Positions 7,501-58,250 of a DNA stretch of 64,000 bases are shown here, piece after piece (position 1 is the stretch's first letter; every line of letters starts with the position of its first letter). Source of the DNA: Anaerolineae bacterium (lineage in GTDB: Bacteria; Chloroflexota; Anaerolineae; Aggregatilineales; UBA3940); NCBI GenBank assembly GCA_034435035.1, contig DAOTXW010000081.1, positions 72,580 through 136,579 on the forward strand, read 5' to 3'. The notes under the pieces are model-generated. The model searched no databases. It was not told the origin of the DNA and saw only the letters and a program-made list of their open reading frames with translations. The translations under genes were made by a program, and so were the position numbers.

Positions 7501-8544
7501 TTACGAATCCGACGAGGAATCGCCGGCGCTTTTCTGCTGCACACGCTCGCGCTCCCTGCGCCGCCGCTGGCGCAGACGGTCGCGCTCCAGTGCCCGCTCG
7601 CGGCGGCGCCTCTCAGAAAGGATCTCCTGATACTGCTGCTGGCGCTGCCGCCGGGTCAGCGGACGCTGGATGAACGGGATCTTGAAGTGCCCGGTGCGAT
7701 CCAGAACGATCAGCAGCCCGATCAGCACATAGACCATGGAAAGGAGGCGCGAGTAGCTCAAGGGCGACTCGGTGCCATCCGCCAGGAGAATCCGCGGCTG
7801 GTCAGGCCGCCAGATCTCGACGATGAAACGGCCAAAGCCTGCCATCACCAGATACGCCCCGGTCAGGATGCCCCGCTGGATACGCTCCTGGTTGCGACGG
7901 AAGATGAAATACAGCACGCCGAAGCTCAGGAAAAGCCAGAATGCCTCGTACAGCATGGTCGGATGAAAGCGGGTTTCGGCAGGCAGGCTGCGGAACTGCG
8001 GCAGCCGATTTTCCACTGATACCAGCATCCCAAACCATGTCGAGCCGGTCGGCGGGCCATACAGCTCCTGATTGATCAGGTTGCCGAAACGCCCGATGCC
8101 CTGGCCAACCAGCAGGCCAAGCAGCCCGGCGTCTGCCAGCAGCCACCCCGGCAGCTTGCGGGTGCGCGAATACAGGAGCAGCGCAATCAGTCCGCCGACC
8201 GCGCCGCCGAAGATGTTCATGCCGCCGGTGCGCGGGTTCAGAATCTCCAGCGGACGGGAGAGCGAATAAGCGTCGCTGCCGCCCAGCACCGCCTGGCCGA
8301 CATACCACAGCCTTGCGCCCAGCAGGCCCGCAATGAGTACCCACAGAAGCGCATCCCAGACGATCTCCGGATCCTGTCCTTCCATCTCGACATGCCGGGC
8401 GGCGATGAAAGCGCCGACAAAAATACCCACCGAGGCCAGGATGCCATACCAGTAAATCGGCAGGCTGCCGCCTGCGCTGGCGAACCACGGGATGCAGAAT
8501 GCAACTTCCTGCGGGGCGGAGCAGGTCACCAGTGCTTGCCACAT
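7501..8544 (-). CDS. lgt: Prolipoprotein diacylglyceryl transferase with Arg-rich C-terminal tail
   Basis: IYWYGILASVGIFVG, GGMNIFGGAVGGLIALLLY, canonical GQGIGRFGNLINQELYG, FHPTMLYEAFW. Start ATG 8544 is preceded by GAGGA 8 nt upstream; the track start GTG 8574 has no RBS. The tail is RRQRQQQYQEILSERRRRERALERDRLRQRRRRERER. Confidence 0.9.
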   Translation of the reverse strand: MWQALVTCSAPQEVAFCIPWFASAGGSLPIYWYGILASVGIFVGAFIAARHVEMEGQDPEIVWDALLWVLIAGLLGARLWYVGQAVLGGSDAYSLSRPLEILNPRTGGMNIFGGAVGGLIALLLYSRTRKLPGWLLADAGLLGLLVGQGIGRFGNLINQELYGPPTGSTWFGMLVSVENRLPQFRSLPAETRFHPTMLYEAFWLFLSFGVLYFIFRRNQERIQRGILTGAYLVMAGFGRFIVEIWRPDQPRILLADGTESPLSYSRLLSMVYVLIGLLIVLDRTGHFKIPFIQRPLTRRQRQQQYQEILSERRRRERALERDRLRQRRRRERERVQQKSAGDSSSDS

Positions 8545-14501: not shown

Positions 14502-15104
14502 CTACGAGCGGGTTGCGGCGCGCTCAGCGCGGCGGATGCGCCAGCGCAGGAAGATCACAATCCCGATGGCTGCCACCAGCATGATCATGCCGGGCAGCAG
14601 GATCGCCAGCAGCGAGGTGACGGCGGACACCACATCCTCAATGGTGCTGACCACCGGGTTGCCAATGCCCGCAGTGGTCGCCGTCACCACCGGGCGGGCG
14701 GTCGTCTTGGCGGCATGCACGCCGCCGGCAACCAGCAGCCCCAGGATGATGGACAGCACCGGGCTGAGATCGGTCACCACATTGGCGCTGGCGGCGAACA
14801 GCACGGCCCCCGCCGCCGGCCTGATGAGGGTATTGATGATATCGTTCACCGTATCCAGCGCCGGGACCTTATCGACAAAAATCTCGATCAGCGTCAGGAC
14901 GATCAGCACGCCGATCACCCACCAGCTGGTCATGACATCAAACGGCTCATTCAGCTGGAATACCCCGATTTTGGCCGCTACCGACACAATCAGCAGCGGG
15001 ATATAGGCATTCAGCCCGGCGCTGGCCGAAAGCCCAAAAGCTGAGAATACCGACGCGACTCCTCCCATTCCAGTGCCTCCCATTCTGGCTGCGAGCACAA
15101 TCAT
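14502..15104 (-). CDS. DUF4126-like integral membrane protein
   Basis: FGLSASAGLNAYIPLLIVSVAAK...IEIFVDKVPALDTVNDIINTLIRPAAGAVL pattern. The start is ambiguous: ATG 15104 or 15068 (both with SD-like GAGG/GGGAGG), or the track start 15161. Confidence 0.55.
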   Translation of the reverse strand: MIVLAARMGGTGMGGVASVFSAFGLSASAGLNAYIPLLIVSVAAKIGVFQLNEPFDVMTSWWVIGVLIVLTLIEIFVDKVPALDTVNDIINTLIRPAAGAVLFAASANVVTDLSPVLSIILGLLVAGGVHAAKTTARPVVTATTAGIGNPVVSTIEDVVSAVTSLLAILLPGMIMLVAAIGIVIFLRWRIRRAERAATRS

Positions 15105-15266: not shown

Positions 15267-18227
15267 TCAGGGCTCCAGCAGCAGACCCTCCAGCAGGATG
15301 CGATCGTCAATGGCCGTGCCGCCGGCATCGACCACCGGCAGCCGGGTGTTGGTCGCCAGCAGGTACACGCCGATCTCAAGCTGATAGGAGCCGGGCGGGG
15401 CATCCGCATCCAGCGGTACAGCATACCGATCGCTGATGCGCTCACCAGGCGGCCAGGTGGAGGTAGGGTAGGTTCCCTGCACCGGCCAGGCATCGATCTG
15501 CCCGTGCACCCGGCCGTCGGGGCCCAGCAGATGCACGAAGACGGTATAGTCCTGATCCATCCGGGCCAGCCCCTGCCATGTCAGGGTGACCTCCACGATC
15601 TGGCCCGGCTGCAGCCTGCCGGCTTCAAAGCTGACAGCTTCCAGCAGCATCCGGTTGTCGAAGTTGGCGATGGCCTGGGCTGTGGCGCTTCCGGCCAGCG
15701 TGGTGCGGGCCAGCTCACAGCGATCGCGCAGCGGCTGGAGCCAGCCGCAGCGGAGCGGCCCACCTGCGATCTGCCAGATCACCACCGCGGGATCGCCCTC
15801 ACCGCGGGCAGCGGCCAACCGTGCCGGGCTGCCGGGCAGCTCGCCGCCCGAGACGGCATCTCCGGTCCACGCTGCCGCTACCTCGCGATCCAGCTCCGGG
15901 GTCCGCCAGCCCGCCGACAGCCGGATCACGCCGCCCTCCGGCGCACGCTCCGGGGCCTGCGTGAACAGCAGCACGCCGCCCGGCGCCGCGATGGACGACC
16001 GCCGGCCCCGGGACTCCAGCCGCCCGCCTGGCAGCACCACTTCCAGGGCGGCTGCCGTCGCCCACTCTGACCCATCTCTCAGCAGGATGCTGTCCGGCGA
16101 GAAAGGCGGCCCCAGCCCCACTTGCAGGCGGTAGCTGCCCGGGGGCAGCCACCCCGGCACGGGGATGGCCGTGAAGTCAGGGATGATCTCGCCGTCTTTC
16201 CATGCCACCGGCGGGTACCGCCCACTGACAGGGTAGGCTGGCTGTCCCTGCCAGACGACCTGCCCATCGGCATCAACCAGCCGCTGTCGCATGTGAACGT
16301 TATCGGTCAGGCCGGCAGCCCCCTGCCAGTAGAGGGTGACCCATGCATCCTCGCCGGCGAGGACCGGAGCGGCGGGCAGTTCAGCGCCCAGCAGAACGAT
16401 CCCGTTCTGCCATTCCGCCGGCGTGCCCGACAGGTCAGGGACGACCCGCAGCGGCGCAGCGCTCACTTCCACCAGCGGCCCCATTGCGCGCAGATGGTAG
16501 GTTCCCTCCAGCCCCGGCAGGAAGCGGGCCAGGTATACCGTCTGCCCGGCCGCCAGCCGCTCCCGCAGGTCAACCTGATACTCGGCCTCTGTGCCCAGCA
16601 CCACCACCTCGATATCCGGCCGCAGCCCCTCGATGCGGTGCAGGTATTCCAGGGGGGCCACCTTCTCGCTGTCAGCCAGAATCGCGGCGTCGGCATCCAG
16701 CGGCAGCGCCAGCACGCGCCGCCCCCACGCCTCCAGCGCCTGCTCGTCCGACCAGTCAAACGTGGGGCCGGTCGTCCACACTGCCTGCAGCGGCAGCCAT
16801 GCCAGAAGCGTCAGGGCCGCCGCCTGCAGCCACAACGAGAGCGCCTTCGGGCTGCGCCGTGACATCAGCTCGATCAGCACGCCCGCAGCATAGCCAATCC
16901 AGATCGCCTGCAGTAAAAACAGCGGGATCAGGAAGACTCCGATATCCGGTACCAGGTAGTTCAGGCCATAGAAGAAGTATGCGGCAAACGCCAGCGCCAT
17001 CACCAGCGCCGCCTGCCAGCGGCGTGCCGCCAGCAGAGCCAGCCCGCAAGCGGATGCAATCAGGCCCGGCCAGCCCATCTGCGCCAGCAGCAGCCGCGCC
17101 ACGATCCGCCAGCGTTCTGGATCATCCAGCCAGGCTCGCATCTGCAATGCGCCGCTGAAGCGGCTGCCGCTCACCCAGCCGATGAACTCATCGGGACGCA
17201 TCAGGCGTCCATCGTGCAAGGCCGGCCAGCGCAGCGGAATATACAGGTACACCAGCAGCCCGGCGATCAGAGCACCACCGGCCAGCGCCCACTGGCGCAG
17301 CGTCAGGCGCTGATGCGCCAGCGCCACGGCCACTGCCGGCAGCAGCAGCACCGTCGTGAGGTGGTTGGTGAGGCTCAGCCCGATCAGCCCACCCAGCAGG
17401 ATCACGCGCTGCGGGGAACTGCCGCCGGCGAGCAGGCTCAGGCTCAAGCCCAGAATGGCCGCTGCAAAGGCGTTGTGAAGCGCGTACACTTCGGCGATTA
17501 CCGCCTGGCTCCAGAAGATGGGGCTAAACGCAAAGGTCAGTGCCGCCAGGCCGGCGGGGATCGGTTCGATGCCCAGGATGCAGCGCAGAACCAGATACAG
17601 GGCAATCACGGCCGCTGCCGCGGCGGCAGCCGAGGTCGTGTTGACGGCCACTGCCGCGCTCCCCGGGATAGCCAGACTGAACAGCTTTCCGAGCAGGATG
17701 TACAGCGGGTAGCCGGTCGGGTGAGCCACGCCCAACACCGGGGCCGTTACCTGAAACTCGAAGGTATCCGCGCGGCCGATGGTGCGCTGGAGCGTGATCA
17801 GGTAGGCTGCCAGTGTCGTCGCGCCCACCAGCGCCGCCTCCCGGCGCGCCTGCCGATGAGAGAGCCAATCAGCAGGAGGCAGCGCCAGCGCCGCGCTCAG
17901 CGCCAGCGCTCCGCCGATCAGAATGGCGCCGCGCAGCGGGTTGACGGCATCGGGTGGGGCCAGCAGGTACGGCCAGATCAGGACAGCCGGCAGCAGCGAG
18001 GCGAGCGGCAGGTGGCGGCGGAGCAGTTCCACCAGTGCCCCCAAGACCGCTCCGGCAGCCGCTAACGCCAGCACCACTCCGGGTGCGCCCAGCCCGGCGA
18101 AGCGCAGCGGGGCAGCCTCATAGAGCAGGCGGGAAAGCCCGGCGGCCAGCGTGCCGCCGGCCAGCGCAGCGGCCAGAGTCTCACCAGCCCGGCGGAACCA
18201 GCTCGCAGCGCGGGCGCCAGGTTTCAT
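15267..18227 (-). CDS. DUF2723/TMEM260-like GT-C-fold membrane glycosyltransferase with an N-terminal TM extension and two copies of a C-terminal beta-rich module
   Basis: GRADTFEFQVTAPVLGVAHPTGYPLYILLGKLFS matches the DUF2723 signature (D/E..E/F...LGxAHPxGYPLY). More than 12 predicted TM segments. C-terminal modules occur around aa 640-740 and 875-986. ATGA overlap with the mrdA stop at 18224-18227. Confidence 0.75.
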   Translation of the reverse strand: MKPGARAASWFRRAGETLAAALAGGTLAAGLSRLLYEAAPLRFAGLGAPGVVLALAAAGAVLGALVELLRRHLPLASLLPAVLIWPYLLAPPDAVNPLRGAILIGGALALSAALALPPADWLSHRQARREAALVGATTLAAYLITLQRTIGRADTFEFQVTAPVLGVAHPTGYPLYILLGKLFSLAIPGSAAVAVNTTSAAAAAAAVIALYLVLRCILGIEPIPAGLAALTFAFSPIFWSQAVIAEVYALHNAFAAAILGLSLSLLAGGSSPQRVILLGGLIGLSLTNHLTTVLLLPAVAVALAHQRLTLRQWALAGGALIAGLLVYLYIPLRWPALHDGRLMRPDEFIGWVSGSRFSGALQMRAWLDDPERWRIVARLLLAQMGWPGLIASACGLALLAARRWQAALVMALAFAAYFFYGLNYLVPDIGVFLIPLFLLQAIWIGYAAGVLIELMSRRSPKALSLWLQAAALTLLAWLPLQAVWTTGPTFDWSDEQALEAWGRRVLALPLDADAAILADSEKVAPLEYLHRIEGLRPDIEVVVLGTEAEYQVDLRERLAAGQTVYLARFLPGLEGTYHLRAMGPLVEVSAAPLRVVPDLSGTPAEWQNGIVLLGAELPAAPVLAGEDAWVTLYWQGAAGLTDNVHMRQRLVDADGQVVWQGQPAYPVSGRYPPVAWKDGEIIPDFTAIPVPGWLPPGSYRLQVGLGPPFSPDSILLRDGSEWATAAALEVVLPGGRLESRGRRSSIAAPGGVLLFTQAPERAPEGGVIRLSAGWRTPELDREVAAAWTGDAVSGGELPGSPARLAAARGEGDPAVVIWQIAGGPLRCGWLQPLRDRCELARTTLAGSATAQAIANFDNRMLLEAVSFEAGRLQPGQIVEVTLTWQGLARMDQDYTVFVHLLGPDGRVHGQIDAWPVQGTYPTSTWPPGERISDRYAVPLDADAPPGSYQLEIGVYLLATNTRLPVVDAGGTAIDDRILLEGLLLEP

Positions 18228-20344
18228 GGGGCAGCTGTCGGCGTGGGCGCCGGCGTGGGGACTCCCGGTGTGCCGGTCAGCTGCAGTTGGAGCGCCCGCT
18301 CCGTCTTCAGCCGGAAATAGTCATCCATCACCGCTGCCACAATCGGCAGCGCCACCGTCGCCCCTTCCTGCCCGTTGTAGACAAAGGCGATCACCGATAT
18401 CTCCGGGTTGCTGAAGGGTGCGTAGCCCATATACCAGGCGTGCGCCGGCCAGGCGCCGGGGATGCATCGGTCGAGCGCCGCCGCGATGTTATCACAGTAC
18501 TCGGCAGTCCCCGTCTTACCCGCCACCGGCACGTATGGCAGGCGCTCCTGGTGGCCCAGCGCAGTGCCGCCTTCGATCAGCACAGCCTGGCGCATCCCTT
18601 CGCGCACCAGCGCCAGACTCTCGCTGAGGGTCTCCTCGTAGGGCCCGGTGTGATCCCGGTAAGTGGGCCAGTACTCCCGGATGGCTTCCCGCATGTCCCG
18701 GGTATCGGGTTCAAAGCCGCGGATAACCCGCCCGTTGGCATCGGCGATCTGCCGTACCAGGGTGGGGCGTACCATGATGCCATCGTTGATGATGGTATTC
18801 ATCACGTGAATCATCTGGAGGGGAGTGGTCAGGACATACCCCTGACCAAACGCCGAGTTGTAGGTATCGCCTGTTGACCAGTTCTCGCCCCAGGTACGGC
18901 GCTTCCACGAGGGGCCGGGGATGATGCCATCGATCTCGCCGGCGAGTTCCACCCCGGTCTCGGCGCCCAGACCGAAGATCTCCATCCAGTGGCCTAACCG
19001 CTCGATGCCGAGGCCAATGCCCTCGACTTCGCCCGCAAAGCCACCGCCGACTTTATAGAAGTACACATCGCATGACCAGGCGATGCCGCGGATCAGATCC
19101 ACTGCGCCATGCCCGCGATTGCGCCCCCGGTCGATCCAGCACACGAACGTTTGCGCCTGGCTCGGCTCGTTGGGATAGTACCGATTCTCGAGCTGGATCT
19201 TGCCGGGATCCTCAATGGCGTAATCGGGCGCCACCACATCCTCCTCCAGCACGGCGGTGGCGGTCAGAACCTTGAAGATCGAACCCGGAGGGTACAGTGA
19301 GCTGACGGCCTGATTGAACAGCGGCGCCTTGGGATCCTGCGAGACCTGCAGGTAGTAGGGGTAGTCGATGGCACGGGCGAAGCGCTGGTTATCATACGTC
19401 GGCCAGCTGACCATTGTCAGGATCTCGCCGGTACGCGGGTTCATGGCGATCACCACGCCGCGGTCGAAGCCGATGCGATCCTGCGGATACAGCTGGCGCA
19501 TCGTCTCCAGCGTGTCGATCAGATGCTCCTGCGCCAGCCGCTGCAGCTCGGCGTCAATCGTCAGCTGCACACTGTAGCCCGGCTGCGCCGGCGTCTCGGC
19601 CAGTGTGCGGCGTACCTCGCCGGCCACATCGCGCTCCACCACCCGGGAACCTGGCCGGCCAGCCAGGATGTCATTGAGCGTGAACTCCACGCCATCGTAG
19701 CCGATCCGATCCCGGTCGAGCACATAGCCCTGCGCCTCATACTCCTCCGCCAGCGACTCCGGGATCGGCCCCATGTAGCCGATGACCTGCGAGGTCAGCG
19801 CCCCGGTGGGGTAGTCGCGCACAGAAAGCCACTCGATGGAAACCCCGGGCAGCTTCTCGGCCATGATGATGCGAGCCGTTTCGTAATCGATATCCGGCTT
19901 GACCACCACCCCGCGGAACGGGGCGATGCCTTCCCCCTCGGCCACCATGGTCACCAGGCTGCGCTGGGGGATGCCGCGCTCGTCCACTGTATTCAGTTCG
20001 CCGCTGAGGGGGACGCCGATCAGGCTTGCCAGGTGCTCCAGCACAGCCATCGACTCCGCATCATCTGCGGGCAGCAGAGCCGGCGTGACAATGACGTTAG
20101 CGCTGGCCACATTGACGGCCAGCGGCATCCCAGTGCGATCGGTCAGAATGCCGCGGGTAGCCGGGATGCTGACCGTATCGAACCGGTTGTCCTCGGCCCG
20201 CAGCACATAGGTTTCCCGCTCGACAAACTGGATCTGATACAGTCGCACAATCAGGGCAGCAAATGAGAGCATCATCACGGCCTGGAAGATCACCAGGCGC
20301 CCTGTTTGCCGGGGCCGACGAGAAGGTTGCAGATACGATGACAT
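18224..20344 (-). CDS. mrdA: Penicillin-binding protein 2 (elongasome class-B transpeptidase)
   Basis: N-terminal anchor plus PBP dimerisation domain. Transpeptidase motifs SIFK (PPGSIFKVLTA), SCD and KTGTAE. Located after mreBCD. Confidence 0.9.
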   Translation of the reverse strand: MSSYLQPSRRPRQTGRLVIFQAVMMLSFAALIVRLYQIQFVERETYVLRAEDNRFDTVSIPATRGILTDRTGMPLAVNVASANVIVTPALLPADDAESMAVLEHLASLIGVPLSGELNTVDERGIPQRSLVTMVAEGEGIAPFRGVVVKPDIDYETARIIMAEKLPGVSIEWLSVRDYPTGALTSQVIGYMGPIPESLAEEYEAQGYVLDRDRIGYDGVEFTLNDILAGRPGSRVVERDVAGEVRRTLAETPAQPGYSVQLTIDAELQRLAQEHLIDTLETMRQLYPQDRIGFDRGVVIAMNPRTGEILTMVSWPTYDNQRFARAIDYPYYLQVSQDPKAPLFNQAVSSLYPPGSIFKVLTATAVLEEDVVAPDYAIEDPGKIQLENRYYPNEPSQAQTFVCWIDRGRNRGHGAVDLIRGIAWSCDVYFYKVGGGFAGEVEGIGLGIERLGHWMEIFGLGAETGVELAGEIDGIIPGPSWKRRTWGENWSTGDTYNSAFGQGYVLTTPLQMIHVMNTIINDGIMVRPTLVRQIADANGRVIRGFEPDTRDMREAIREYWPTYRDHTGPYEETLSESLALVREGMRQAVLIEGGTALGHQERLPYVPVAGKTGTAEYCDNIAAALDRCIPGAWPAHAWYMGYAPFSNPEISVIAFVYNGQEGATVALPIVAAVMDDYFRLKTERALQLQLTGTPGVPTPAPTPTAAP

Positions 20345-20415
20345 TAATCAGTTATCCGGCGCAGCGGGGTTCTGAGCCCGGCTGCCTGCGTGCTTCGCAG
20401 CGCCACCGCCAAGCA

Positions 20416-20919
20416 CTAGATCCTGACCTGCCGCGGGTGCAGCCTCGTATACGGACCGGTCAACAGCCGCACAGCCGGCAGAATCAACAGCAGATCGAAG
20501 GCCACCGAGGGCAGGGCCGTGTACCGGAGCGCCTCCCCCCAGGGGAGCGCCATGCCCATAGTAAACCGCAGCAGCAGCAGGTATGCCAGATGATATGCCA
20601 GTGCGCCAGCCGCGGTCAACAGCAGCGGCAGGGCGATATTCGTACGATATACCCCCGCTTCGGTCAGGCCCACCACATAAGCGATCGGGACCAGCGCAAG
20701 CGAAGATAGGCCAAGCGGCGCCCCGGACAGCAGATCAAGCAGCAGGCCGCCCACAAACGCCCAGACCATGCCTTCGCGATCGTGGTCAAGTGTGGCCCAC
20801 GCCAGCACCAGCACAACGATCAGATCCGGCTGCCCGCCGTAGACGCGCAGGTAAGGCAGGATGGTCGCCTGCACCAGGGCCGCTGCCAGCAGCAGCGGCA
20901 CGCCCAACTGAAGGCTCAC
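20416..20919 (-). CDS. mreD: Rod shape-determining protein MreD
   Basis: 167-aa five-TM protein immediately after mreC, with a GTGA overlap at 20916-20919. Confidence 0.75.
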   Translation of the reverse strand: MSLQLGVPLLLAAALVQATILPYLRVYGGQPDLIVVLVLAWATLDHDREGMVWAFVGGLLLDLLSGAPLGLSSLALVPIAYVVGLTEAGVYRTNIALPLLLTAAGALAYHLAYLLLLRFTMGMALPWGEALRYTALPSVAFDLLLILPAVRLLTGPYTRLHPRQVRI

Positions 20920-21782
20920 GGCACCTGCCCTCCCTGACCTTCGATATCCTGCTCAAAGATCGACAGATCAACCGGCTCGAAGCTGATGATGACGCTGACC
21001 AGCTCCAGCTGGTTGAAATCCACCGTGGGGCGAATTTCTGCATCCTGGAACAGCGCCGCAGGCTGCTTGCGTACACTGGAGACCTGCCCGATCACGATAT
21101 TAGCGGGAAAGGCTCCGCCCAGCCCTGATGTCAGGACAAGGTCACCGGGTTCTATCAGCGCCTCCTGCGGGATCAGCTCCATACGCAGGCTGCCCTGCAG
21201 CTGCCCCACCACAGTGCCCTCCGCGCGGGCATTCTGCAAACGGGCATTGACCAGGCTCCCCTGATCGATCACTAGACGCACCCAGGCGGCATTGGCCGCA
21301 GCATCCTCCACGCGACCCACCAGCCCCAGGTCGCTGATGACCGGGTTGCCTGGTGTGACGCCATCACGGGTTCCACGGTTGATGATGATCCAGCGGAGGT
21401 AGCTGCTGGTATCCCGGGCGATCACATCGGCTGTGACAAGCCCCTGATCGGGATTCTCGGCGGCGTAGCTGACCAGCCCGCTGAGCCGGTAATAATCGCG
21501 CTCGATCTCACGCAGACGGACGATCTCCACCTGCAGCCTGGCGACGGTCGCCTCCAGCTCGCGGCTCCGCGCCTGCAATGCGTCGTAATCCTCAGGCGGA
21601 GCGCTCAGGTCTCGCGCGGCCGTCGCCCCACCGGTCAGCAGACGGGCCAGCGGCGAGATGGGCGCCATCACCGCTGTGACCAGTGGGCGCAGCGGGCCCG
21701 CCTGAACGCCTGCGCTGACCAGCGCAAGCGCCACCAGGATCAGCACTCCCAGTGTCAGCAGACGGCTGTTCTGTCGCCTCAT
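20916..21782 (-). CDS. mreC: Rod shape-determining protein MreC
   Basis: N-terminal anchor, coiled coil (ELEATVARLQVEIVRLRE), then beta-barrel repeats with GNPVISDLGLVGRV and GDLVLTSGLGGAFPANIVIGQV. Confidence 0.9.
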   Translation of the reverse strand: MRRQNSRLLTLGVLILVALALVSAGVQAGPLRPLVTAVMAPISPLARLLTGGATAARDLSAPPEDYDALQARSRELEATVARLQVEIVRLREIERDYYRLSGLVSYAAENPDQGLVTADVIARDTSSYLRWIIINRGTRDGVTPGNPVISDLGLVGRVEDAAANAAWVRLVIDQGSLVNARLQNARAEGTVVGQLQGSLRMELIPQEALIEPGDLVLTSGLGGAFPANIVIGQVSSVRKQPAALFQDAEIRPTVDFNQLELVSVIISFEPVDLSIFEQDIEGQGGQVP

Positions 21783-21888
21783 CCCTCACCCGGCCCATAA
21801 ACCAAATGGGCGTGATCCCTGGGCATGGTGGCAGGAATCACCCCCTCGATGTCGGCGCTGTGGGATCCGGCGCGCGCTTGCGCCCGGA

Positions 21889-22950
21889 TCAGTGCTGAGT
21901 GCTGCCGCGCTCCAGCCCCACCAGCATACGCCTGAGATTATCATAGTCTTCCAGCACGCGGCCCGCACCCCGCGCCACACAGGTCATCGGATCTTCGGCC
22001 AGCCAGACCCGCATGTTGGTTTCTTCCGAGATGCGCTCCGCCAAGCCGGCCAGCAGCGATCCCCCGCCGGCCATACAGATGCCGGTTTCCATCAGGTCCG
22101 AGATCAGTTCTGGCGGGGTCTCATCCAGCGCTTCTTTGAGGGTATCCACGATCACCTGCACCGATCCGGACAGCGCCTCACGCAGCTCAATCGAGGAAAT
22201 ATCGATCGTCTCGGGCAGGCCGGTGATCAGGTTGCGCCCGCGCATCGTCACGCGCCGCTCCTCTGGCAGCGGGTAGGCGGACCCGGCATCCAGCTTCGCG
22301 CGCTCGGCCATACGCTCGCCGATCAGCAGATTATACTTGGTCCGCATGTACTGAATGATGTCCTCATCCATCTCATCGCCGGCCACGCGGATCGATCGGC
22401 TGATCACAATGCCACCCAGCGAGAAGATCGCCACCTCGGTCGTGCCGCCCCCGATATCCACGATCATGCTGCCATGGCTCTCAGTGATTGGCAGCCCGGC
22501 GCCGATGGCGGCAGCCATGGGTTCCTCGATCAGGAACGCCTCGCGTGCTCCGGCGGACATCGTTGCATCATAAACGGCCCGCTTCTCAACCTCGGTCACG
22601 CCGCTGGGGATGCCTACTACCACCCGCGGGCGCGGCACCGGGACGAGAGACTGCTCATGCGCTTTGCCGATGAAATACTCCAGCATGGCCTGCGTGATTT
22701 CGAATTCCGAGATCACCCCATCACGCAGGGGCCGGATGGCGATGATATTGGCGGGTGTGCGGCCCACCATCTGCCGCGCTTCAGCACCGATGGCCAGGGC
22801 CTTGCGGGTGCGCTTATCAATGGCCACCCAGGACGGCTCATTGATCATAATGCCGCGGCCCCGCACGTTGACCAGAGTGTTGGCTGTGCCCAGATCAATG
22901 CCGATATCCAGCGAAAAAAGGCCAAGCAGCCAATTCAGCGGGGTAAACAA
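21889..22950 (-). CDS. mreB: Rod shape-determining actin homolog MreB
   Basis: DIGIDLGTANTLV, EPMAAAIGAGLP and DIGGGTTEVA motifs. Start reassigned to TTG 22950..22948, which has AGGAG 8 nt upstream and a consensus promoter at 23008-23036 lying inside the longer track ORF. Confidence 0.9.
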   Translation of the reverse strand: MFTPLNWLLGLFSLDIGIDLGTANTLVNVRGRGIMINEPSWVAIDKRTRKALAIGAEARQMVGRTPANIIAIRPLRDGVISEFEITQAMLEYFIGKAHEQSLVPVPRPRVVVGIPSGVTEVEKRAVYDATMSAGAREAFLIEEPMAAAIGAGLPITESHGSMIVDIGGGTTEVAIFSLGGIVISRSIRVAGDEMDEDIIQYMRTKYNLLIGERMAERAKLDAGSAYPLPEERRVTMRGRNLITGLPETIDISSIELREALSGSVQVIVDTLKEALDETPPELISDLMETGICMAGGGSLLAGLAERISEETNMRVWLAEDPMTCVARGAGRVLEDYDNLRRMLVGLERGSTQH

Positions 22951-23007: not shown

Positions 23008-23036
23008 ATTATACCATTCGCCTACCTCACCTGCAA
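23008..23036 (-). promoter_or_regulatory. Sigma-A-type promoter of mreB
   Basis: Minus strand reads TTGCAG, 17 nt, TATAAT (-35 at 23036..23031, -10 at 23013..23008). Confidence 0.55.
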
Positions 23037-23346: not shown

Positions 23347-24690
23347 ATGGCAGAGCGTTTTATTCAGTCGCTGGCAGACAATATGGCCGATGTGCTAACC
23401 ACCGCGGCGGTGATCGGAGGTCTGGTACTGCTGATTCTGTATCTGCGGGCGCGCCAGCGGCGCGTGGCACGGCTGCGCGCCGAGGTGCACGGCGCCGTAG
23501 CGCAACCCCCCCGTCTACGTGAGGTGCTGGGCAGGGTTGCCAACCTGACCACAGCCGAGATGGCGGCTGTCGGCACCGTGACGTTCGTGGACATTGCCTG
23601 GCAGTACAGCCTGGCTGATCCGCAGATCTGGGATCATTTCAGCGGTCCGGCGGCCGACCACATCATCGATGCCATCCAGAATCTTGACGTGCTGAGGGCC
23701 AGCCTCGGCGAGCGCTCACAGGCGGCAGCGAACCAGCTACTCGAGAGCCTCAAAGCGACCGAAGCCGCCCAGGTCTTCCATGATCTGGTGGAGAAGCTTC
23801 CGCTTGTGGAGAGCGCCGCCGCGTCAACGGCGGTGGCGGTGGAGGCGTCGGGGCATTCGATGGTCGATTCGCTGTCGGCGGCCAGCGCTGCCGTGGAAGG
23901 CAAGGCCCATGCGGCGGCGGGGGCGGTCGGCGCGACGGCTGGCGGCGGCCTGATCCAGCACCTGCCGCTGGTGACAATCGGGTTTGCGACCTACCGGGCG
24001 TGGCGCCGCAGCCAGCGCGGGACGGGGCTGGGCCGCAACATCGAGTTTACCGCCATTGAGGTGGCAACGCGGGCAGGCGGCGGGCTGATCGGCAGCCAGC
24101 TCGGCGGAGCAGCCGGCACCGCCATCGCCCCCGGGATCGGCACGCTGCTGGGCGGGGTGGCCGGGGCAGTGGCCGGGACGATCGGCGGAGTCCTGCTGGG
24201 TGAGGACATCAAGAAGCGGCACCTGCGCCAGGCGCAGCGTGCGTTTGAGGAATCGCTCGAGCAGCTCGGCCGGACATACCTGGAAGAGCCGGCTGCCTTC
24301 CAGCGGCTGACGGGTGTGTTCGTGCAGCATGAGCGCGCCTATGTCGAAAGTCTGCGCCAGACCCGGCGCCGCCTGCTCGCCTACGCGATGCCATGGCGCA
24401 TCGCCTGGCCGGATCAGAAGCTGATCCTGCTCCAGGAGACTGTGCGGCTGGCTGAAGATCGCCTGAGCAGCGTCCGTCAGGGCACCATCGACGCGATTGA
24501 CCGCCTCGACTATATGCGGGTGCGCGGCCAGAACCGGGAGCTTGGTGCGATCCTGTGGAGCAACCCGGCGCTGCGCGACCAGGTGGATCCGGATCCGGCC
24601 CTGGTACAGACTCTTGACCAGCAGCAGGCCCGCCTGCGCCGCGAGATCGCCCACATGGGTCTTTCGCTCTCAGAAAGCGCGGCGATGTGA
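23347..24690 (+). CDS. Hypothetical membrane protein with central glycine-zipper segment and helical C-terminal domain
   Basis: N-terminal TM VLTTAAVIGGLVLLILYL and Gly-zipper AGGGLIGSQLGGAAGTAIAPGIGTLLGGVAGAVAGTIGGVLLG. I recognise no family. The stop overlaps the tsaB GTG start (GTGA at 24687-24690). Confidence 0.55.
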   Translation: MAERFIQSLADNMADVLTTAAVIGGLVLLILYLRARQRRVARLRAEVHGAVAQPPRLREVLGRVANLTTAEMAAVGTVTFVDIAWQYSLADPQIWDHFSGPAADHIIDAIQNLDVLRASLGERSQAAANQLLESLKATEAAQVFHDLVEKLPLVESAAASTAVAVEASGHSMVDSLSAASAAVEGKAHAAAGAVGATAGGGLIQHLPLVTIGFATYRAWRRSQRGTGLGRNIEFTAIEVATRAGGGLIGSQLGGAAGTAIAPGIGTLLGGVAGAVAGTIGGVLLGEDIKKRHLRQAQRAFEESLEQLGRTYLEEPAAFQRLTGVFVQHERAYVESLRQTRRRLLAYAMPWRIAWPDQKLILLQETVRLAEDRLSSVRQGTIDAIDRLDYMRVRGQNRELGAILWSNPALRDQVDPDPALVQTLDQQQARLRREIAHMGLSLSESAAM

Positions 24691-41839: not shown

Positions 41840-42643
41840 ATGGCGCCTGACCTGGGCCGCATCGGCCCCTATTATCTGCGCTCCTACACCCTGCTGCTCG
41901 ATCTGGCTATTCTGCTGGGGCTGGCCCTGCTCGCCTGGCATGGCCGGCGGGCCGGCGAGCGTCCTGCTGACTGGGTGGATGCCGGCCTGAGCGCGCTTGC
42001 AGCCGGGGTCCTCGGCGGCCGCCTGGGCCACGTCATGATCTATCGTGACTATTTTGCCGAACACCCCGATCGCATTCTGCAGGTATGGCGCGGCGGCCTG
42101 GACTGGCACGGCGCGATACTGGCCGGGCTGATCGGGCTGGCGATCGGCTGCCGGTGGCGCCGGCTGCGTTTCCGTGCCGTGGCCGATGCGCTGGCGCTGG
42201 CGCTGCCGCTGGGCGCACTGCTTACCTACACTGGCTGCCTGATGGGCAGCTGCGGCCACGGGCGCGAGGTGGCCTCGCTGGCCCAGTATCCTGCCCCACT
42301 GGTGCTGGAGCTGCCTGATCTTTACGGCGTGCGCGCCCCGCGCCTGGCCAGCCAGCTCTACGGGCTTGCCTGGAGCGCCGTGATCCTCGCCCTGTCGCTG
42401 GCGCAGGCCCGCCGCGAGGGCCGCCCCGGCGTGCGTCTGTGGATCGCCCTTGCCCTTCTATCAGCCGGCGCCTTTGCTGTGGGCTTCACCCGCGGCGACT
42501 CGATCCCGATGCTGGGCGCGCTGCGCCTTGACCAGGTGCTGGATCTGGCAATGGCCGCGGTCGCTCTGGCGGGCCTGCTGCTTGCCGGGCGCCGCACCCC
42601 CACGTATACCCTCTATGGGCCTGCTGGATTCGTACGCAGATAA
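41840..42643 (+). CDS. Divergent Lgt-family (prolipoprotein diacylglyceryl transferase-like) membrane protein
   Basis: YYLRSYTLLLDLAILLG, GVLGGRLGHVMIY and VWRGGLDWHGAILAGLIGL resemble Lgt. The canonical GR-x-GN-x-x-N-x-E-x-x-G block is replaced by TGCLMGSCGHGREV. Confidence 0.6.
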   Translation: MAPDLGRIGPYYLRSYTLLLDLAILLGLALLAWHGRRAGERPADWVDAGLSALAAGVLGGRLGHVMIYRDYFAEHPDRILQVWRGGLDWHGAILAGLIGLAIGCRWRRLRFRAVADALALALPLGALLTYTGCLMGSCGHGREVASLAQYPAPLVLELPDLYGVRAPRLASQLYGLAWSAVILALSLAQARREGRPGVRLWIALALLSAGAFAVGFTRGDSIPMLGALRLDQVLDLAMAAVALAGLLLAGRRTPTYTLYGPAGFVRR

Positions 42644-54494: not shown

Positions 54495-57400
54495 CTACGG
54501 CGCGAAGGGGATCTCCACAAAGTCGCCGCCGGGCGGGTTGACTACAGTCAGGCGGATTGAAGTCTGTGGATCATAGATACCGATGCGCAGCGTGTAAGGG
54601 CCGGGCGGCGCATCGGCTGGTAGCGTGATGTCGTGCGTCTGCGCAATGAAGTCACCTGCTCGCCAGCCTGTTGAGGGCGCCCCCAGCCCGTCGCTCTGGG
54701 CCAGCATGGCGCTGTTTCCATCCAGCAGGTGCAGGAAGATACGCAGCGGAACGGGCGTCGGCCCGTCGGCTATCCAGGTCGTCAGCAGCGTGAAAGACTG
54801 GCCCGGCCCCCCGACTCCGAACGCCTCCACCCCGAGGAGCGTGGCAGCCGCGCTCGTCTGGCCGGGCAGCGCAAAACCGTATTCCTGCCCCCCGCTGTCC
54901 CTGGACGGCAGATCGCCGGCGCTGACGCGGTAGCGCGTGTAACTGCTGTGGGCAGCCTCCGGCATGATGCCCCAGCCGGGCATCTGCGCAGCCAGCGCCG
55001 GATGCAGCCCGGCAAAGGCCGGGATCGCCAGCTCCGCCGCGCCATCGAAACTGGCAGCAGGCACCAGCAGCGCGGTGTGCGGGTCAAAGAAGCTCAGCGA
55101 TCGCGCATAAACGTCATCATTCATCATCAGCAGCAGCGTGCCGGGATCCATCAGATACGGGGTGACGCCCCCCACGGCGACCGGAGGACGGTCCGGGCGG
55201 GCGTCGAGATCGGCAGCCAGCGGCACATAGTCCGATTGGTACCAGAAACGCACGGCGGGATCCGCAGGCCAGAGCGTGAAGTAGTGCAGAGCAGTGTTCT
55301 GCAGCTGGTGCACCAGACCCAGCGCCGCCACCAGCCCCACCGAGATCGCCAGCCGCAGATGCCCGGACTGTCGCAGCGCTCCCATCAGGCTGTCCACGGC
55401 GATGGCCGGGAAAATATAGGCGATTCCGAGCAGACCGATGGTGCGCGAGGGGTTCAGCGCTCGCTGGGTCACCAGTGTCGGGACGAGCATCGCCGCCAGC
55501 CAGATCAGCGCCAGCGCATAACCCTCCCGGCGCGGGCTGCCCCGCTGGAAAAGCCCGCCCAGGGCGATCAGCAGCCCGATGTAGAACAGCGCCGCCAGAA
55601 TCAGCGTCGGGAAGACGGGCAATGCCGCATTATTCACATCGATCCCCGGGTCGCCCCGGACGGTGAACATCCCCATCACGGGCAGCACATTGGCCAGCGC
55701 CGGGCCCGGATCGCCGGCCCGCAGGGCCTCCAGCGGCGCATCCACCGCCGCCGCCCTGGCAGCGGCCTGCGGGTCGGCCCAGGATCGCGCCAGTGGGATG
55801 CACAGGATCGCCGCCAGCAGGAAGCTGGCAGCCAGCCCGGGCCATTTGCCTGCCAGCCGGTCGCGCTGCAGCAGAGCCGCGGCTGCCACCCACAGCAGCA
55901 GGATGAGCGGCAGCATCAACGCCGCCGGATAGGTGTGCAGCGCCAGTGCCAGCATCGCCCCGGCGGCAGCGTAGAGCCAGGGCGGGGGCCGCCGGCTGTC
56001 CAGCAGCCGCGCAAACAGATAGGCGGCCAGCAGGGCCATGACCGGTGCGCTGCCGGTCCGTTCCCCCAGGCGCGAGAACGTCAGCGCCCAGTAAGAAGTC
56101 GTGATGCCGGCAGCGGCCATCAGAGCGGCCGGCCTGCCAAACAGCCGCCGCGTCAGGCTGAAGGTAGCCGCCACCCCGATCATGCCCAGCGCCAGCGCGG
56201 GCAGCCGCGACCCCAGGATATTCGTGCCGATCAGCCGGAAAGTCGCCGCGACCAGGATCTGGTACAGCGCCTCGCGCCCCCCGCCATACGGGTACAGCGC
56301 CCGGAGTTCTCCCCGGTAGATCATCTCGGCGTTGTACCAGTCGAAGACCTCATCATGGCTCACTCCCGGCGGCGATGCGCTGAAATGCGCGCTCCGCAGG
56401 GCGAAAGCGCCTACCAGCAGCGCCGTGACAGCCGCCCATTCCCAGCCGCTCAGCCGCCTGGCCCGCCTTCGAGATACCGCAGGCTCCGGAGGCCGGTGCA
56501 GCGCCCAGCCCGCGGCCGCGGCCAGCGACGCCGCCCACAACCAGGCCAGCGCGATCAGCCAGCCGCCGTCAGGCCCGATCACACGGGTGGCGTGCGCGTC
56601 CTCCGGGCTGGCGGCGTAGACCCAGAAGAAGTCCACTCCGTCGATCCGCACCACGAGCTGGGGAGGCTGCCCACTGAGCTCGTCCCAGCGCGGGCGCCAC
56701 TCATGCTGCTCCAGCTCCCGCTGGAACGCCGACAGATTGAACACGTAGTATTCGGAATCCCGGCGCAGGTCGCGCACCACTTCGCCGGCGAAAAAATCTC
56801 CCAGATAGATGTTCAGCGGCCAGCCAGCCCCGACTGTCAGCCGTCGGGGTTGCGGCTGCTGGTTCAGGTAATCGATGACGTAGTTCGCGCCCTCCGTCTC
56901 ACCCACCAGCTCGATCACCGTCACCGCCACCCGGTTGCCCCCCACCAGCGCGTTGTGATGGGCGCTGAAGTTCGGCGCGTAGTTCAGGGCAGTGGCTGCC
57001 TGCAGCAGCAGGGCAGCAGCCATCATACCGGCTGGGGTCAGGCGAGCGAGTCTCCCCCCGGCGGGCAGCCGCGACTGCAGCAGCGATGCCAGGCTGGCGG
57101 CGCCGGCAGCCGCCAGCACCTCCAGCATGACATGGGTGGGCAGCAGATAGCGATCAAACTGCTTGGCCCCGATGCTCATCTGCACTGTGAAGAAGAAGGC
57201 GTATGCCGCCAGCAGCCAGAAGATCAGCGGCGGCAGCGGTGGCTTGAAGCGGCGCGGGACGAACAGATACAGGCCTGCTGCCGCCGCGCTTAACGTCAGC
57301 GTGACGGCCGTCATGTTGAACAGCAGCGTGGCCGGGTAAAAAAGGATCGGCGGGCGCTGGCCGGCGTAATACTGGCCGGCGAAGAAACGCGCCAGCCCAT

Positions 57401-58250
57401 GCCCCCGGGCAACATGCTCGCCCGCCCCGCTGACGATGCTCTGCAGCACCAGGCCGGGCTGCACCCACATCGCCGGCCACAGCGCCAGCGGCAGCGCAGC
57501 CATGCCGATCCACTGGAGCAGCGGCAGGACGATCGCCCGGGCGGCCACGCCTGCCAGCCAGCGAGCGCGCCCCTGCGCGCGATCAGTCCATTCCGCCCGA
57601 ACCCGGACACTGGCCGCGGCCAGCAGCGTCAGACCGGCAAAGGGCAGCAGGAACAGGGAAGGCACCTTCGTCAGGATCGCCAGCCCACCAACCAGACCAG
57701 ACAGCAGCAGGTCACCCCGCTGCCGGCTGTGAGCATGGTTCAGGATCAGCAGCCCGGAACACAGCATCAGCGATGCGGCCAGCGCATCCACATGCAGCAC
57801 GCGCCCCTGCGCAGCATAGAAGGGTGAGAAGGCCATCAGCCCGCCGGCCGTCAGTCCCAGCGGCCACCCGCCGAGCCGCACCAGCAGCCGGGTATTGAGG
57901 ACGATCAGGCCGGCGATCACCAGTGCCAGACCCAGGATTGAGGCGCTGATCTCGCGCCCGGTTCGAGTGGCATCCGGTCGGGCTGCCCAGTCAAACAGAG
58001 CGCCGGCCGCTGTCCCTCGTGTGGCCTCGAACAGCGCCAGCGAGCCACCTCCAATGGCCATCACGGTGAATCCGGGGTGGCGCGACTGGTAGGTGCTGGC
58101 CCAGTCCTGCCCGGCGACGGCCTCCACGAAGGCACGGCTGCGGCGGTGCCACTGGCGTGGACGCTCCACCGGCTGGTAGGCGCGAATCAGAAAGGCGATC
58201 AGGTACAGTGCGATCAGCGCCAGGGCAGAGACGCGGCGAGAGCGGATCAT
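54495..58250 (-). CDS. 1251-aa two-module polytopic membrane protein: an N-terminal module paralogous to the 58247..60049 product, fused to an ArnT/PMT-like GT-C module with a C-terminal beta-rich module
   Basis: aa 1 to ~585 are collinear with the neighbouring 600-aa protein (e.g. YQSRHPGFTVMAIGG vs YQSRHPGVTGMVIGG, GGLMAFSPFYAAQGRVLHVDAL vs GGLMAFSPFYLAQGRVFHLDAL). The junction is near nt 56480 (GWALHRPPEPAVSRRRARR). Module 2 has the first-loop motif SPPGVSHDEVFDWYN. The C-terminal module spans 54495-54803. Confidence 0.7.
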   Translation of the reverse strand: MIRSRRVSALALIALYLIAFLIRAYQPVERPRQWHRRSRAFVEAVAGQDWASTYQSRHPGFTVMAIGGGSLALFEATRGTAAGALFDWAARPDATRTGREISASILGLALVIAGLIVLNTRLLVRLGGWPLGLTAGGLMAFSPFYAAQGRVLHVDALAASLMLCSGLLILNHAHSRQRGDLLLSGLVGGLAILTKVPSLFLLPFAGLTLLAAASVRVRAEWTDRAQGRARWLAGVAARAIVLPLLQWIGMAALPLALWPAMWVQPGLVLQSIVSGAGEHVARGHGLARFFAGQYYAGQRPPILFYPATLLFNMTAVTLTLSAAAAGLYLFVPRRFKPPLPPLIFWLLAAYAFFFTVQMSIGAKQFDRYLLPTHVMLEVLAAAGAASLASLLQSRLPAGGRLARLTPAGMMAAALLLQAATALNYAPNFSAHHNALVGGNRVAVTVIELVGETEGANYVIDYLNQQPQPRRLTVGAGWPLNIYLGDFFAGEVVRDLRRDSEYYVFNLSAFQRELEQHEWRPRWDELSGQPPQLVVRIDGVDFFWVYAASPEDAHATRVIGPDGGWLIALAWLWAASLAAAAGWALHRPPEPAVSRRRARRLSGWEWAAVTALLVGAFALRSAHFSASPPGVSHDEVFDWYNAEMIYRGELRALYPYGGGREALYQILVAATFRLIGTNILGSRLPALALGMIGVAATFSLTRRLFGRPAALMAAAGITTSYWALTFSRLGERTGSAPVMALLAAYLFARLLDSRRPPPWLYAAAGAMLALALHTYPAALMLPLILLLWVAAAALLQRDRLAGKWPGLAASFLLAAILCIPLARSWADPQAAARAAAVDAPLEALRAGDPGPALANVLPVMGMFTVRGDPGIDVNNAALPVFPTLILAALFYIGLLIALGGLFQRGSPRREGYALALIWLAAMLVPTLVTQRALNPSRTIGLLGIAYIFPAIAVDSLMGALRQSGHLRLAISVGLVAALGLVHQLQNTALHYFTLWPADPAVRFWYQSDYVPLAADLDARPDRPPVAVGGVTPYLMDPGTLLLMMNDDVYARSLSFFDPHTALLVPAASFDGAAELAIPAFAGLHPALAAQMPGWGIMPEAAHSSYTRYRVSAGDLPSRDSGGQEYGFALPGQTSAAATLLGVEAFGVGGPGQSFTLLTTWIADGPTPVPLRIFLHLLDGNSAMLAQSDGLGAPSTGWRAGDFIAQTHDITLPADAPPGPYTLRIGIYDPQTSIRLTVVNPPGGDFVEIPFAP

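Follow-up and report, generated by a model that had tools for sequence, protein, structure and literature searches.

A morphogenesis operon that ends in a TMEM260-like gene

Five co-oriented genes on the minus strand, running from position 22950 down to position 15267, were identified in a 64-kb stretch of Anaerolineae DNA (64,000 nucleotides [nt] of contig DAOTXW010000081.1, hereafter the window, to which all positions refer). In order of transcription they are mreB, mreC, mreD, mrdA, which encodes penicillin-binding protein 2 (PBP2), and a gene for a 986-amino-acid (aa) protein of the DUF2723/TMEM260-like family of GT-C glycosyltransferases. This order had been proposed in an initial annotation made from the DNA letters and a list of open reading frames (ORFs), and it was borne out here: the ORFs lie where that annotation placed them, and their identities are solid by hidden Markov model comparison. 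mreB (21889-22950, minus strand; 353 aa) matched PF06723 (457 bits) and NF010539 (487 bits), begins with a TTG codon preceded 8 nt upstream by an AGGAG ribosome-binding site, and was also called as a 353-aa gene in a public assembly (locus L001). mreC (20916-21782, minus strand; 288 aa) matched PF04085 (145 bits) and TIGR00219 (105 bits versus a cutoff of 92.75), and mreD (20416-20919, minus strand; 167 aa) matched TIGR03426 (60 bits versus a cutoff of 34.85) and PF04093 (41 bits). mrdA (18224-20344, minus strand) encodes a 706-aa class B transpeptidase of the elongasome (TIGR03423, 501 bits versus a cutoff of 455) with PBP_dimer and Transpeptidase domains, an SxxK motif at S355, and a KTG motif at 610. 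The last gene (15267-18227, minus strand; 986 aa) matched PF11028 (98 bits).

The four elongasome genes, whose operon makes the lateral wall in rod-shaped cells, are thus all present, in one orientation and closely spaced, with gaps of 106 nt between mreB and mreC, -4 nt between mreC and mreD, and 71 nt between mreD and mrdA; the DUF2723 gene follows mrdA at -4 nt. Both of the 4-nt overlaps that had been described earlier are there: the GTG start of mreD and the mreC stop share GTGA at 20916-20919 (minus strand), as follows from the ORF coordinates, and the ATG of the DUF2723 gene and the mrdA stop share ATGA at 18224-18227 (minus strand), as read in the sequence. The predicted mreB promoter was likewise found by direct reading at 23008-23036 (minus strand), as a promoter-like TTGCAG-17 nt-TATAAT element with a TG extension; it did not appear in the list from a consensus scan because its -35 hexamer matches at only 3 of 6 positions. 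The promoter and terminator scan, which is uninformative at 65% GC, returned no convincing internal promoter and no same-strand terminator after the DUF2723 gene. Judged from gene geometry only, the DUF2723 gene would be cotranscribed with the PBP2 gene, to which it is probably also translationally coupled.

Fold and predicted active site of the 986-aa protein

The only family match of the 986-aa protein was to PF11028 (98.2 bits versus a cutoff of 24.2; residues 154-306 against profile positions 1-173 of 179), formerly DUF2723 and now named "Protein O-mannosyl-transferase TMEM260-like"; its homologues carry the same precomputed Pfam match, and searches of NCBIfam and PADLOC gave no match to the protein. 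From 63 homologues, AlphaFold2 produced a model with a pLDDT of 90 and a pTM of 0.90. When its membrane part was compared with the PDB by Foldseek, the best structural matches were ArnT (5F15; E of 3e-8, target TM-score of 0.53), PglB, ALG12 (0.59), ALG9, AftD, and Pmt4, all GT-C enzymes that draw sugars from polyprenyl-phosphate carriers. Identities to ArnT, PglB, AftD, and ALG9/12 were about 10-13%, and these enzymes differ from the window protein in their acceptors (lipid A, Asn sequons, arabinan, and N-glycan precursors) and in that none of them has a tie to the Rod system. No SEDS structure was present among the Foldseek matches listed (the best 50 of 68 at E<=1e-3), and no match to PF01098 was found. 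The earlier assignment to a DUF2723/TMEM260-type GT-C protein unrelated to SEDS therefore holds on the Pfam, Foldseek, and 9RQL matches, the last of which is described next.

A profile made from the 63-sequence alignment retrieved a single entry from the PDB sequences by hmmsearch, human TMEM260 (9RQL_A; E of 1.3e-40), and the window protein as a single sequence matched TMEM260 at an E of 6e-17. The profile match paired positions 122-541 with chain residues 28-463, taking in the membrane core and the luminal Rossmann-like palm, such that both regions are homologous to those of the human enzyme (PDB 9RQL/9RQM/9RQN), and the motifs GVAHP.GYPL and EGLRPD are common to both proteins. In TMEM260, two essential residues of the first luminal loop, D52 and H67, serve in donor alignment, D52A and H67 mutants being inactive, and D441 in the palm is the essential general (catalytic) base (PMC10214176; bioRxiv 10.64898/2026.03.17.711096). 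Pairwise and profile alignments placed D154, H169, and D519 of the window protein on D52, H67, and D441, respectively, and all three, together with E157, were invariant in the 63-sequence alignment. That the donor-site Asp and His and the base Asp are invariant in the window protein and its 62 homologues points to selection on catalysis. Judged by these sequence matches and by the model, the 986-aa protein is an intact, true TMEM260 homologue and an apparently active GT-C enzyme.

Four regions can be delimited in the model. An N-terminal extension (residues 1-130; 17838-18227, minus strand) adds four helices before the first GT-C helix; the initial annotation had noted about 130 aa of extra membrane sequence here, and the segment proved to be conserved (invariant R33 and E37), confidently modeled, and absent from the short DUF2723 clades discussed below. 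Charge distribution under the positive-inside rule suggests that these four helices are transmembrane, which would keep the catalytic loop periplasmic. The GT-C membrane core (residues 131-500; 16728-17837, minus strand) carries D154 (17766-17768), E157 (17757-17759), and H169 (17721-17723) in its first periplasmic loop. It is followed by a periplasmic palm (residues ~501-600; 16428-16727, minus strand), alpha/beta by its AlphaFold2 secondary structure, with the invariant D519 (16671-16673) and the EGLRPD motif. The C-terminal part (residues ~601-986; 15270-16427, minus strand) is all-beta in the model and forms tandem beta-sandwich domains, for which Foldseek returned the fibronectin type III (FnIII) domains of RbmA, the macroglobulin (MG) domains of complement C3, and a transglutaminase barrel; W634, W676, W884, Q910, and D912 are among its invariant residues. 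Neither the N-terminal extension nor the C-terminal region gave anything meaningful against Pfam at E<=10, and no tetratricopeptide repeat (TPR) was found in them. The window protein therefore differs from human TMEM260 in having four extra N-terminal helices and in having beta-sandwich domains in place of TPR fingers, as well as in the location of its gene in an elongasome operon.

Conservation of the linkage between mrdA and the DUF2723 gene

A protein identical to the 986-aa protein was found in GCA_964451875.1 (contig CAYVJV010000007.1) and in the Logan assemblies of SRR10095373/4, and its relatives were annotated as Anaerolineae or Chloroflexota metagenome-assembled genomes. In 5 of 5 homologues looked up (40-100% identity, the identical protein included), the gene lay directly after mrdA. 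The other four (P0005, 56% identity; P0034, 47%; P0065, 45%; P0059, 42%) all had mreC and mreD upstream, and mreB as well except beside P0034, in outer flanks that were entirely different. Adjacency of mrdA and the DUF2723 gene, which had been singled out beforehand as something to check in relatives, thus persists to about 40% identity amid differing flanking genes.

A wider metagenome scan seeded with the DUF2723 alignment yielded 80 loci. mreBCD-mrdA lay immediately upstream of the DUF2723 gene in 16 of the closest full-length relatives. In 4 further loci (L099, L100, L102, and L104) the DUF2723 gene instead lay between mreD and mrdA, preceded by a gene for a YfhO-like GT-C protein, the C-terminal domain of which in the L102 lineage resembles that of the DUF2723 protein. 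These loci therefore have two GT-C genes between mreD and mrdA (L102:5955-12053, and likewise in the other three), encoding a YfhO-like protein of up to 962 aa and a DUF2723 protein of 1069 aa. The shorter and more distant DUF2723 proteins (600-800 aa) were never linked to mre-mrdA. Neighbor-joining analysis of the GT-C core placed the linked genes in one clade of ~1000-aa proteins, all short DUF2723 clades being unlinked. The junction itself is compact: the start codon fell between -26 and +30 nt from the mrdA stop in 20 of the 24 loci where the gene follows mrdA, with the same 4-nt overlap as in the window in 7 of the 24. Chance adjacency was rejected by these synteny surveys, as the arrangement recurs in dozens of independent contigs. 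The linkage of mrdA and the DUF2723 gene is real and old: it belongs to a clade of ~1000-aa proteins that has diverged to about 40% identity and that lies almost always in the mre-mrdA cluster.

Position of rodA

The initial annotation had placed the DUF2723 gene in the slot usually held by rodA, which invites the reading that the glycosyltransferase stands in for RodA beside PBP2. It had also suggested that glycosylation is stoichiometrically tied to lateral wall synthesis, a tie that the overlap with mrdA may indicate. A genome scan seeded with PBP2 and covering 80 Anaerolineae species representatives allowed the slot after mrdA to be examined. mrdA was followed by minC-minD-minE-rodA in 59 of the 80 and directly by rodA in 10; a full DUF2723 gene followed in 5 (L011, L012, L013, L032, and L058), a truncated DUF2723 relic was found in 2 (L071, and L021, where it lies within a 1.2-kb gap before minC), and 5 loci were uninformative. 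The position directly after mrdA and the translational overlap stand, whereas the slot is normally that of minC and only in 10 of 80 that of rodA. The order in the 59 loci is that of the Firmicute-type morphogenesis cluster of Clostridium genomes, mreB-mreC-mreD-pbp-minC-minD-minE-rodA.

Six intact clusters of the form mreBCD-mrdA-DUF2723-minCDE-rodA were found (L009, L058, L095, L098, L106, and L117), each amounting to the Firmicute-type cluster plus one GT-C gene. Their SEDS gene was best classified as RodA (TIGR02210, 302-364 bits, versus 264-318 bits for FtsW). Since both genes occur together in these relatives, the DUF2723 gene is an insertion between mrdA and the min-rodA genes. The two relics, which encode membrane proteins of 362-381 aa between mrdA and minC (L021:7236-8381 and L071:12271-13359), were 42% identical to residues 371-447 of the DUF2723 core (E of 4e-11) and had neither the catalytic loop nor the periplasmic domains; each could be either a decayed copy or a noncatalytic derivative in the same slot.

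Within the window, tblastn searches with RodA of Escherichia coli and one Anaerolineae RodA (E<=1e-3) found no SEDS gene, in keeping with what had been reported from its ORFs, and minCDE were not found there either; rodA is part of the cluster in most relatives but not of the one in the window. The genome of the window was not among the GTDB species representatives returned by the scan, and its RodA was located by a protein look-up with the L009 RodA as the query. This RodA (P0171) scored 336 bits with the RodA model TIGR02210 versus 282 bits for FtsW. Its gene lies on the 519-kb contig CAYVJV010000001.1, in the assembly that also has the identical 986-aa protein, and is present in SRR10095373 as well. 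The first check proposed in the initial annotation, a search for rodA elsewhere in the genome, thus does away with the idea of replacement. The gene order around P0171 is rplI, rodZ homologue, miaB-like, NUDIX, rodA, gltX. The same context was found in a relative (L092), where a single 1.32-Mb contig carries both rodA (P0210) and the DUF2723 gene at a distance of more than 1 Mb, and the pairing of rodA with gltX also ends intact clusters (L009; L176). With rodA found elsewhere beside gltX and the DUF2723 gene still attached to mrdA, the cluster must have broken between the DUF2723 gene and rodA in the subclade of the window. In that subclade, the operon now ends with the DUF2723 gene, and rodA has moved to a rodZ-miaB-nudix-rodA-gltX locus, so that minCDE-rodA are separated from the rest of the Firmicute-type cluster. 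No minCDE were seen beside rodA at two rodA loci of this subclade (L171 and L174).

Proposed role and candidate acceptors

Taken together, we consider the 986-aa protein to be probably, with moderate confidence, a catalytically competent GT-C enzyme of the TMEM260/DUF2723 type that uses a polyprenyl-phosphate sugar and has become a fixed accessory gene of the Rod-system operon in one Anaerolineae lineage. By homology to TMEM260, its membrane core would bind the polyprenyl-phosphate sugar at the outer face through D154 and H169, D519 of the periplasmic palm would act as the general base to activate the acceptor's hydroxyl, and the C-terminal beta-sandwich array, in place of TPR fingers, would select the acceptor. 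The donor of human TMEM260 is Dol-P-Man, whereas that of the window enzyme would be a bacterial polyprenyl-phosphate sugar.

We propose tentatively, and rate at somewhat below even, that the acceptors would be Ser/Thr residues in disordered, Thr/Pro-rich extracytoplasmic tails of elongasome proteins, here PBP2 and RodZ. PBP2 of the window ends in TGTPGVPTPAPTPTAAP, and its Pro/Thr-rich extracytoplasmic C-terminal tail (RLKTERALQLQLTGTPGVPTPAPTPTAAP; 18227-18313, minus strand) is a candidate O-glycosylation acceptor. PBP2 tails of at least 20 aa were found at 9 of 26 DUF2723-linked loci versus 2 of 72 unlinked loci, and the Ser, Thr, and Pro counts of linked and unlinked tails differed with a Mann-Whitney p of about 1e-5 that is not corrected for phylogeny (98 loci). 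The longest tail seen, 115 residues, acidic and Pro-rich, is that of a DUF2723-linked PBP2 at locus L116 (ending at 5618). The RodZ homologues beside the relocated rodA (L174:4772-5896 and L171:4757-5857) have Pro/Thr-rich linkers after the membrane helix and long extracytoplasmic (Thr-Pro)n tails, e.g., LTPTPTPTLTPTPTNVPTPTPRATTAPGG, in both of the subclade genomes examined. The PBP2 tail as a universal acceptor was rejected, being enriched yet absent from most linked loci, and is kept only as a lead: with short tails at most linked loci, PBP2 cannot be the acceptor throughout.

Direct precedents for such a reaction exist. With Und-P-glucose as the donor, the streptococcal GT-C enzyme PgtC2 glycosylates disordered, Ser/Thr-rich regions of PBP1a, PBP1b, RodZ, and MapZ (PMC12041528). 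Among the glycoproteins that depend on Pmt in Streptomyces are PBPs and an L,D-transpeptidase, and mutants in pmt show hypersensitivity to antibiotics that target the wall (PMC6593405). The streptococcal PgtC2/Pgf system, which belongs to the YfhO family, resembles the one proposed here in being of GT-C type and using an undecaprenyl-phosphate sugar outside the membrane (a shared activity that would follow from homology in our case), and its targets, which also include PrsA, have Ser/Thr-rich regions comparable to the tails of PBP2 and RodZ in the subclade of the window; it differs in being YfhO and not DUF2723 and in having its genes outside the mre operon. Actinobacterial Pmt (GT39) likewise carries out lipid-sugar-dependent O-glycosylation of secreted and membrane proteins, PBPs and L,D-transpeptidases among them, with Thr/Pro-rich acceptors, but is of the PMT/PMT_2 family and constitutes a general system that has no genetic link to mreBCD-mrdA.

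Several observations weigh against this reading. Most of the 80 Anaerolineae representatives do without a DUF2723 gene at mrdA, and one nested sub-branch of the linked clade has lost the linkage and lies among unrelated genes. TMEM260 R264 and R355, which make sugar and phosphate contacts, are not conserved, the aligned residues being G354 and V431 in a gapped part of the alignment; Y267 corresponds to an invariant F357, so that the aromatic character is kept, and in the sequence R356 and the nearby invariant R333 offer a possible alternative phosphate contact. Since donor-contact residues differ, the sugar may well not be mannose. About two-thirds of linked loci have a short, ordinary PBP2 tail, and the tail comparison is not phylogeny corrected. 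The acceptor module is a beta-sandwich array and not a set of peptide-binding TPRs, and would suit a glycan acceptor equally well. Gene geometry is the sole basis for cotranscription, and the promoter scan picked up weak promoter-like hexamers inside mrdA. No polyprenyl-phosphate-sugar synthase (of the GtrB/Ppm1-type GT2 kind) was seen among the window ORFs scanned, and the window has four more PMT-like GT-C genes that are candidates for general O-glycosyltransferases. Finally, no bacterial DUF2723 protein has been characterized in the searchable literature.

A serious rival to the protein tails, if in itself rather unlikely, is a glycan acceptor: the enzyme would add a sugar from a polyprenyl-phosphate donor to nascent peptidoglycan or to a secondary side-wall polymer, which the beta-sandwich domains would hold as carbohydrate-binding modules. 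AftD and Emb carry such modules, those of AftD (one of the Foldseek matches and a glycan-acting GT-C enzyme) being periplasmic beta-sandwiches, and the tandem array of the window protein has conserved Trp, Gln, and Asp residues. The lack of Ser/Thr-rich tails in most linked PBP2 proteins also fits a glycan acceptor, as does the L102 lineage, where a YfhO-like GT-C protein with a similar C-terminal domain is encoded next to the DUF2723 gene in the same operon; according to PMC12041528, teichoic acids of Bacillus and Listeria receive sugars from YfhO homologues. Against it, TMEM260, the only characterized member of the family, glycosylates Thr/Ser of proteins, and its catalytic base is kept here; the beta-sandwich matches, moreover, are to generic immunoglobulin (Ig)/FnIII-like folds, with no recognized carbohydrate-binding family detected by Foldseek or Pfam.

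A bolder version of the proposed role, which we regard as unlikely, would make the protein a glycosyltransferase that belongs to the Rod complex of a filamentous Chloroflexota lineage as a dedicated subunit, one that docks on PBP2, RodA, or MreCD and glycosylates either the PBP2/RodZ tails or the nascent side-wall glycan. Docking might occur through the clade-specific four-helix N-terminal extension, and envelope glycosylation would thereby be physically coupled to elongation.

Relics of the gene might suggest a role apart from the elongasome or apart from catalysis, both of which we consider less likely. It is improbable that the gene merely landed once after mrdA, was inherited there, and is expressed from the mre promoter while serving a function unrelated to the elongasome, such as general envelope glycosylation. 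The absence of the gene from the mrdA site in most Anaerolineae, its relocation in one sub-branch without obvious loss of the protein, the retention of only a truncated relic in two genomes, and the many other GT-C genes of the organism would all be in line with such passive carriage. The linkage, however, lasts to about 40% identity though all flanking genes turn over, and it survives rearrangement, as the gene precedes mrdA in one lineage and follows it in the others. When the cluster broke in the subclade of the window, it did so between the DUF2723 gene and rodA and not between mrdA and the DUF2723 gene, and 20 of 24 loci keep a tight or overlapping junction. Very improbable is a mainly nonenzymatic membrane scaffold of the elongasome acting, for example, through the N-terminal four-helix extension: the long clade alone has that extension and conserves it, and two genomes hold a 362-381-aa membrane-core relic in the same slot without catalytic loop or periplasmic domains, but none of the 63 aligned sequences, that of the window included, departs from the donor-site Asp and His or the catalytic-base Asp.

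Almost no credence is left to the strongest form of the earlier idea, that the GT-C protein took over the glycan-polymerase role of RodA beside PBP2: its position right after mrdA with translational overlap and the lack of a SEDS gene in the 64-kb window would fit, but a RodA gene is present in the same assembly (P0171, 336 bits) and relatives hold both genes in one cluster, on which grounds replacement was rejected, and fold and sequence are of the TMEM260, ArnT, and PglB type, with no SEDS protein among the Foldseek matches listed. TMEM260, ArnT, and PglB do not polymerize lipid II; what they move from a lipid-linked donor is a single sugar or a preassembled glycan. Because RodA is present, the RodA-PBP2 paradigm is not overturned.

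Significance for the family

Bacterial homologues of DUF2723/TMEM260 are numerous and have no described function. No paper was found that connects DUF2723 with peptidoglycan, with the elongasome, or with any function in bacteria: DUF2723 appeared only in the TMEM260 paper, queries on GT-C enzymes and the elongasome gave the precedents above and not the system of the window, and nothing relevant was found on mreB or rodA of Anaerolineae. What is new here is a TMEM260-family GT-C protein whose acceptor module differs, which has an additional membrane module, and whose gene keeps its place at mreBCD-mrdA in one Anaerolineae lineage. One clade that combines an intact TMEM260-type active site with a conserved link to PBP2 and MreBCD provides a concrete, testable hypothesis for the family, and points to glycosylation of elongasome proteins or of their product in a phylum with a poorly understood envelope, the organisms concerned being uncultured Anaerolineae. 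Should the protein be a subunit of the Rod complex, it would be the first GT-C component of the elongasome and give the first function for any bacterial TMEM260 homologue. Its beta-sandwich domains also offer a natural comparison with the TPR fingers that form the acceptor-recognition module of TMEM260.

Neighboring genes

On the same strand, 198 nt downstream of the DUF2723 gene, lies a gene for a DUF4126 membrane protein (14502-15068, minus strand); it is not kept at that position in relatives and is therefore probably outside the conserved unit. Divergent from mreB, a 447-aa protein (23347-24690, plus strand) had no family match; rich in Ala and Gly, it has a putative membrane segment that is Gly-rich. 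The four other GT-C genes of the window are consecutive, with overlapping ends, at 54495-63932 (minus strand), and encode proteins of 1251, 600, 742, and 553 aa, all with PMT_2/PMT-type matches. Two paralogues of Lgt (prolipoprotein diacylglyceryl transferase) are encoded less than 35 kb apart, at 7501-8544 (minus strand) and 41840-42643 (plus strand).

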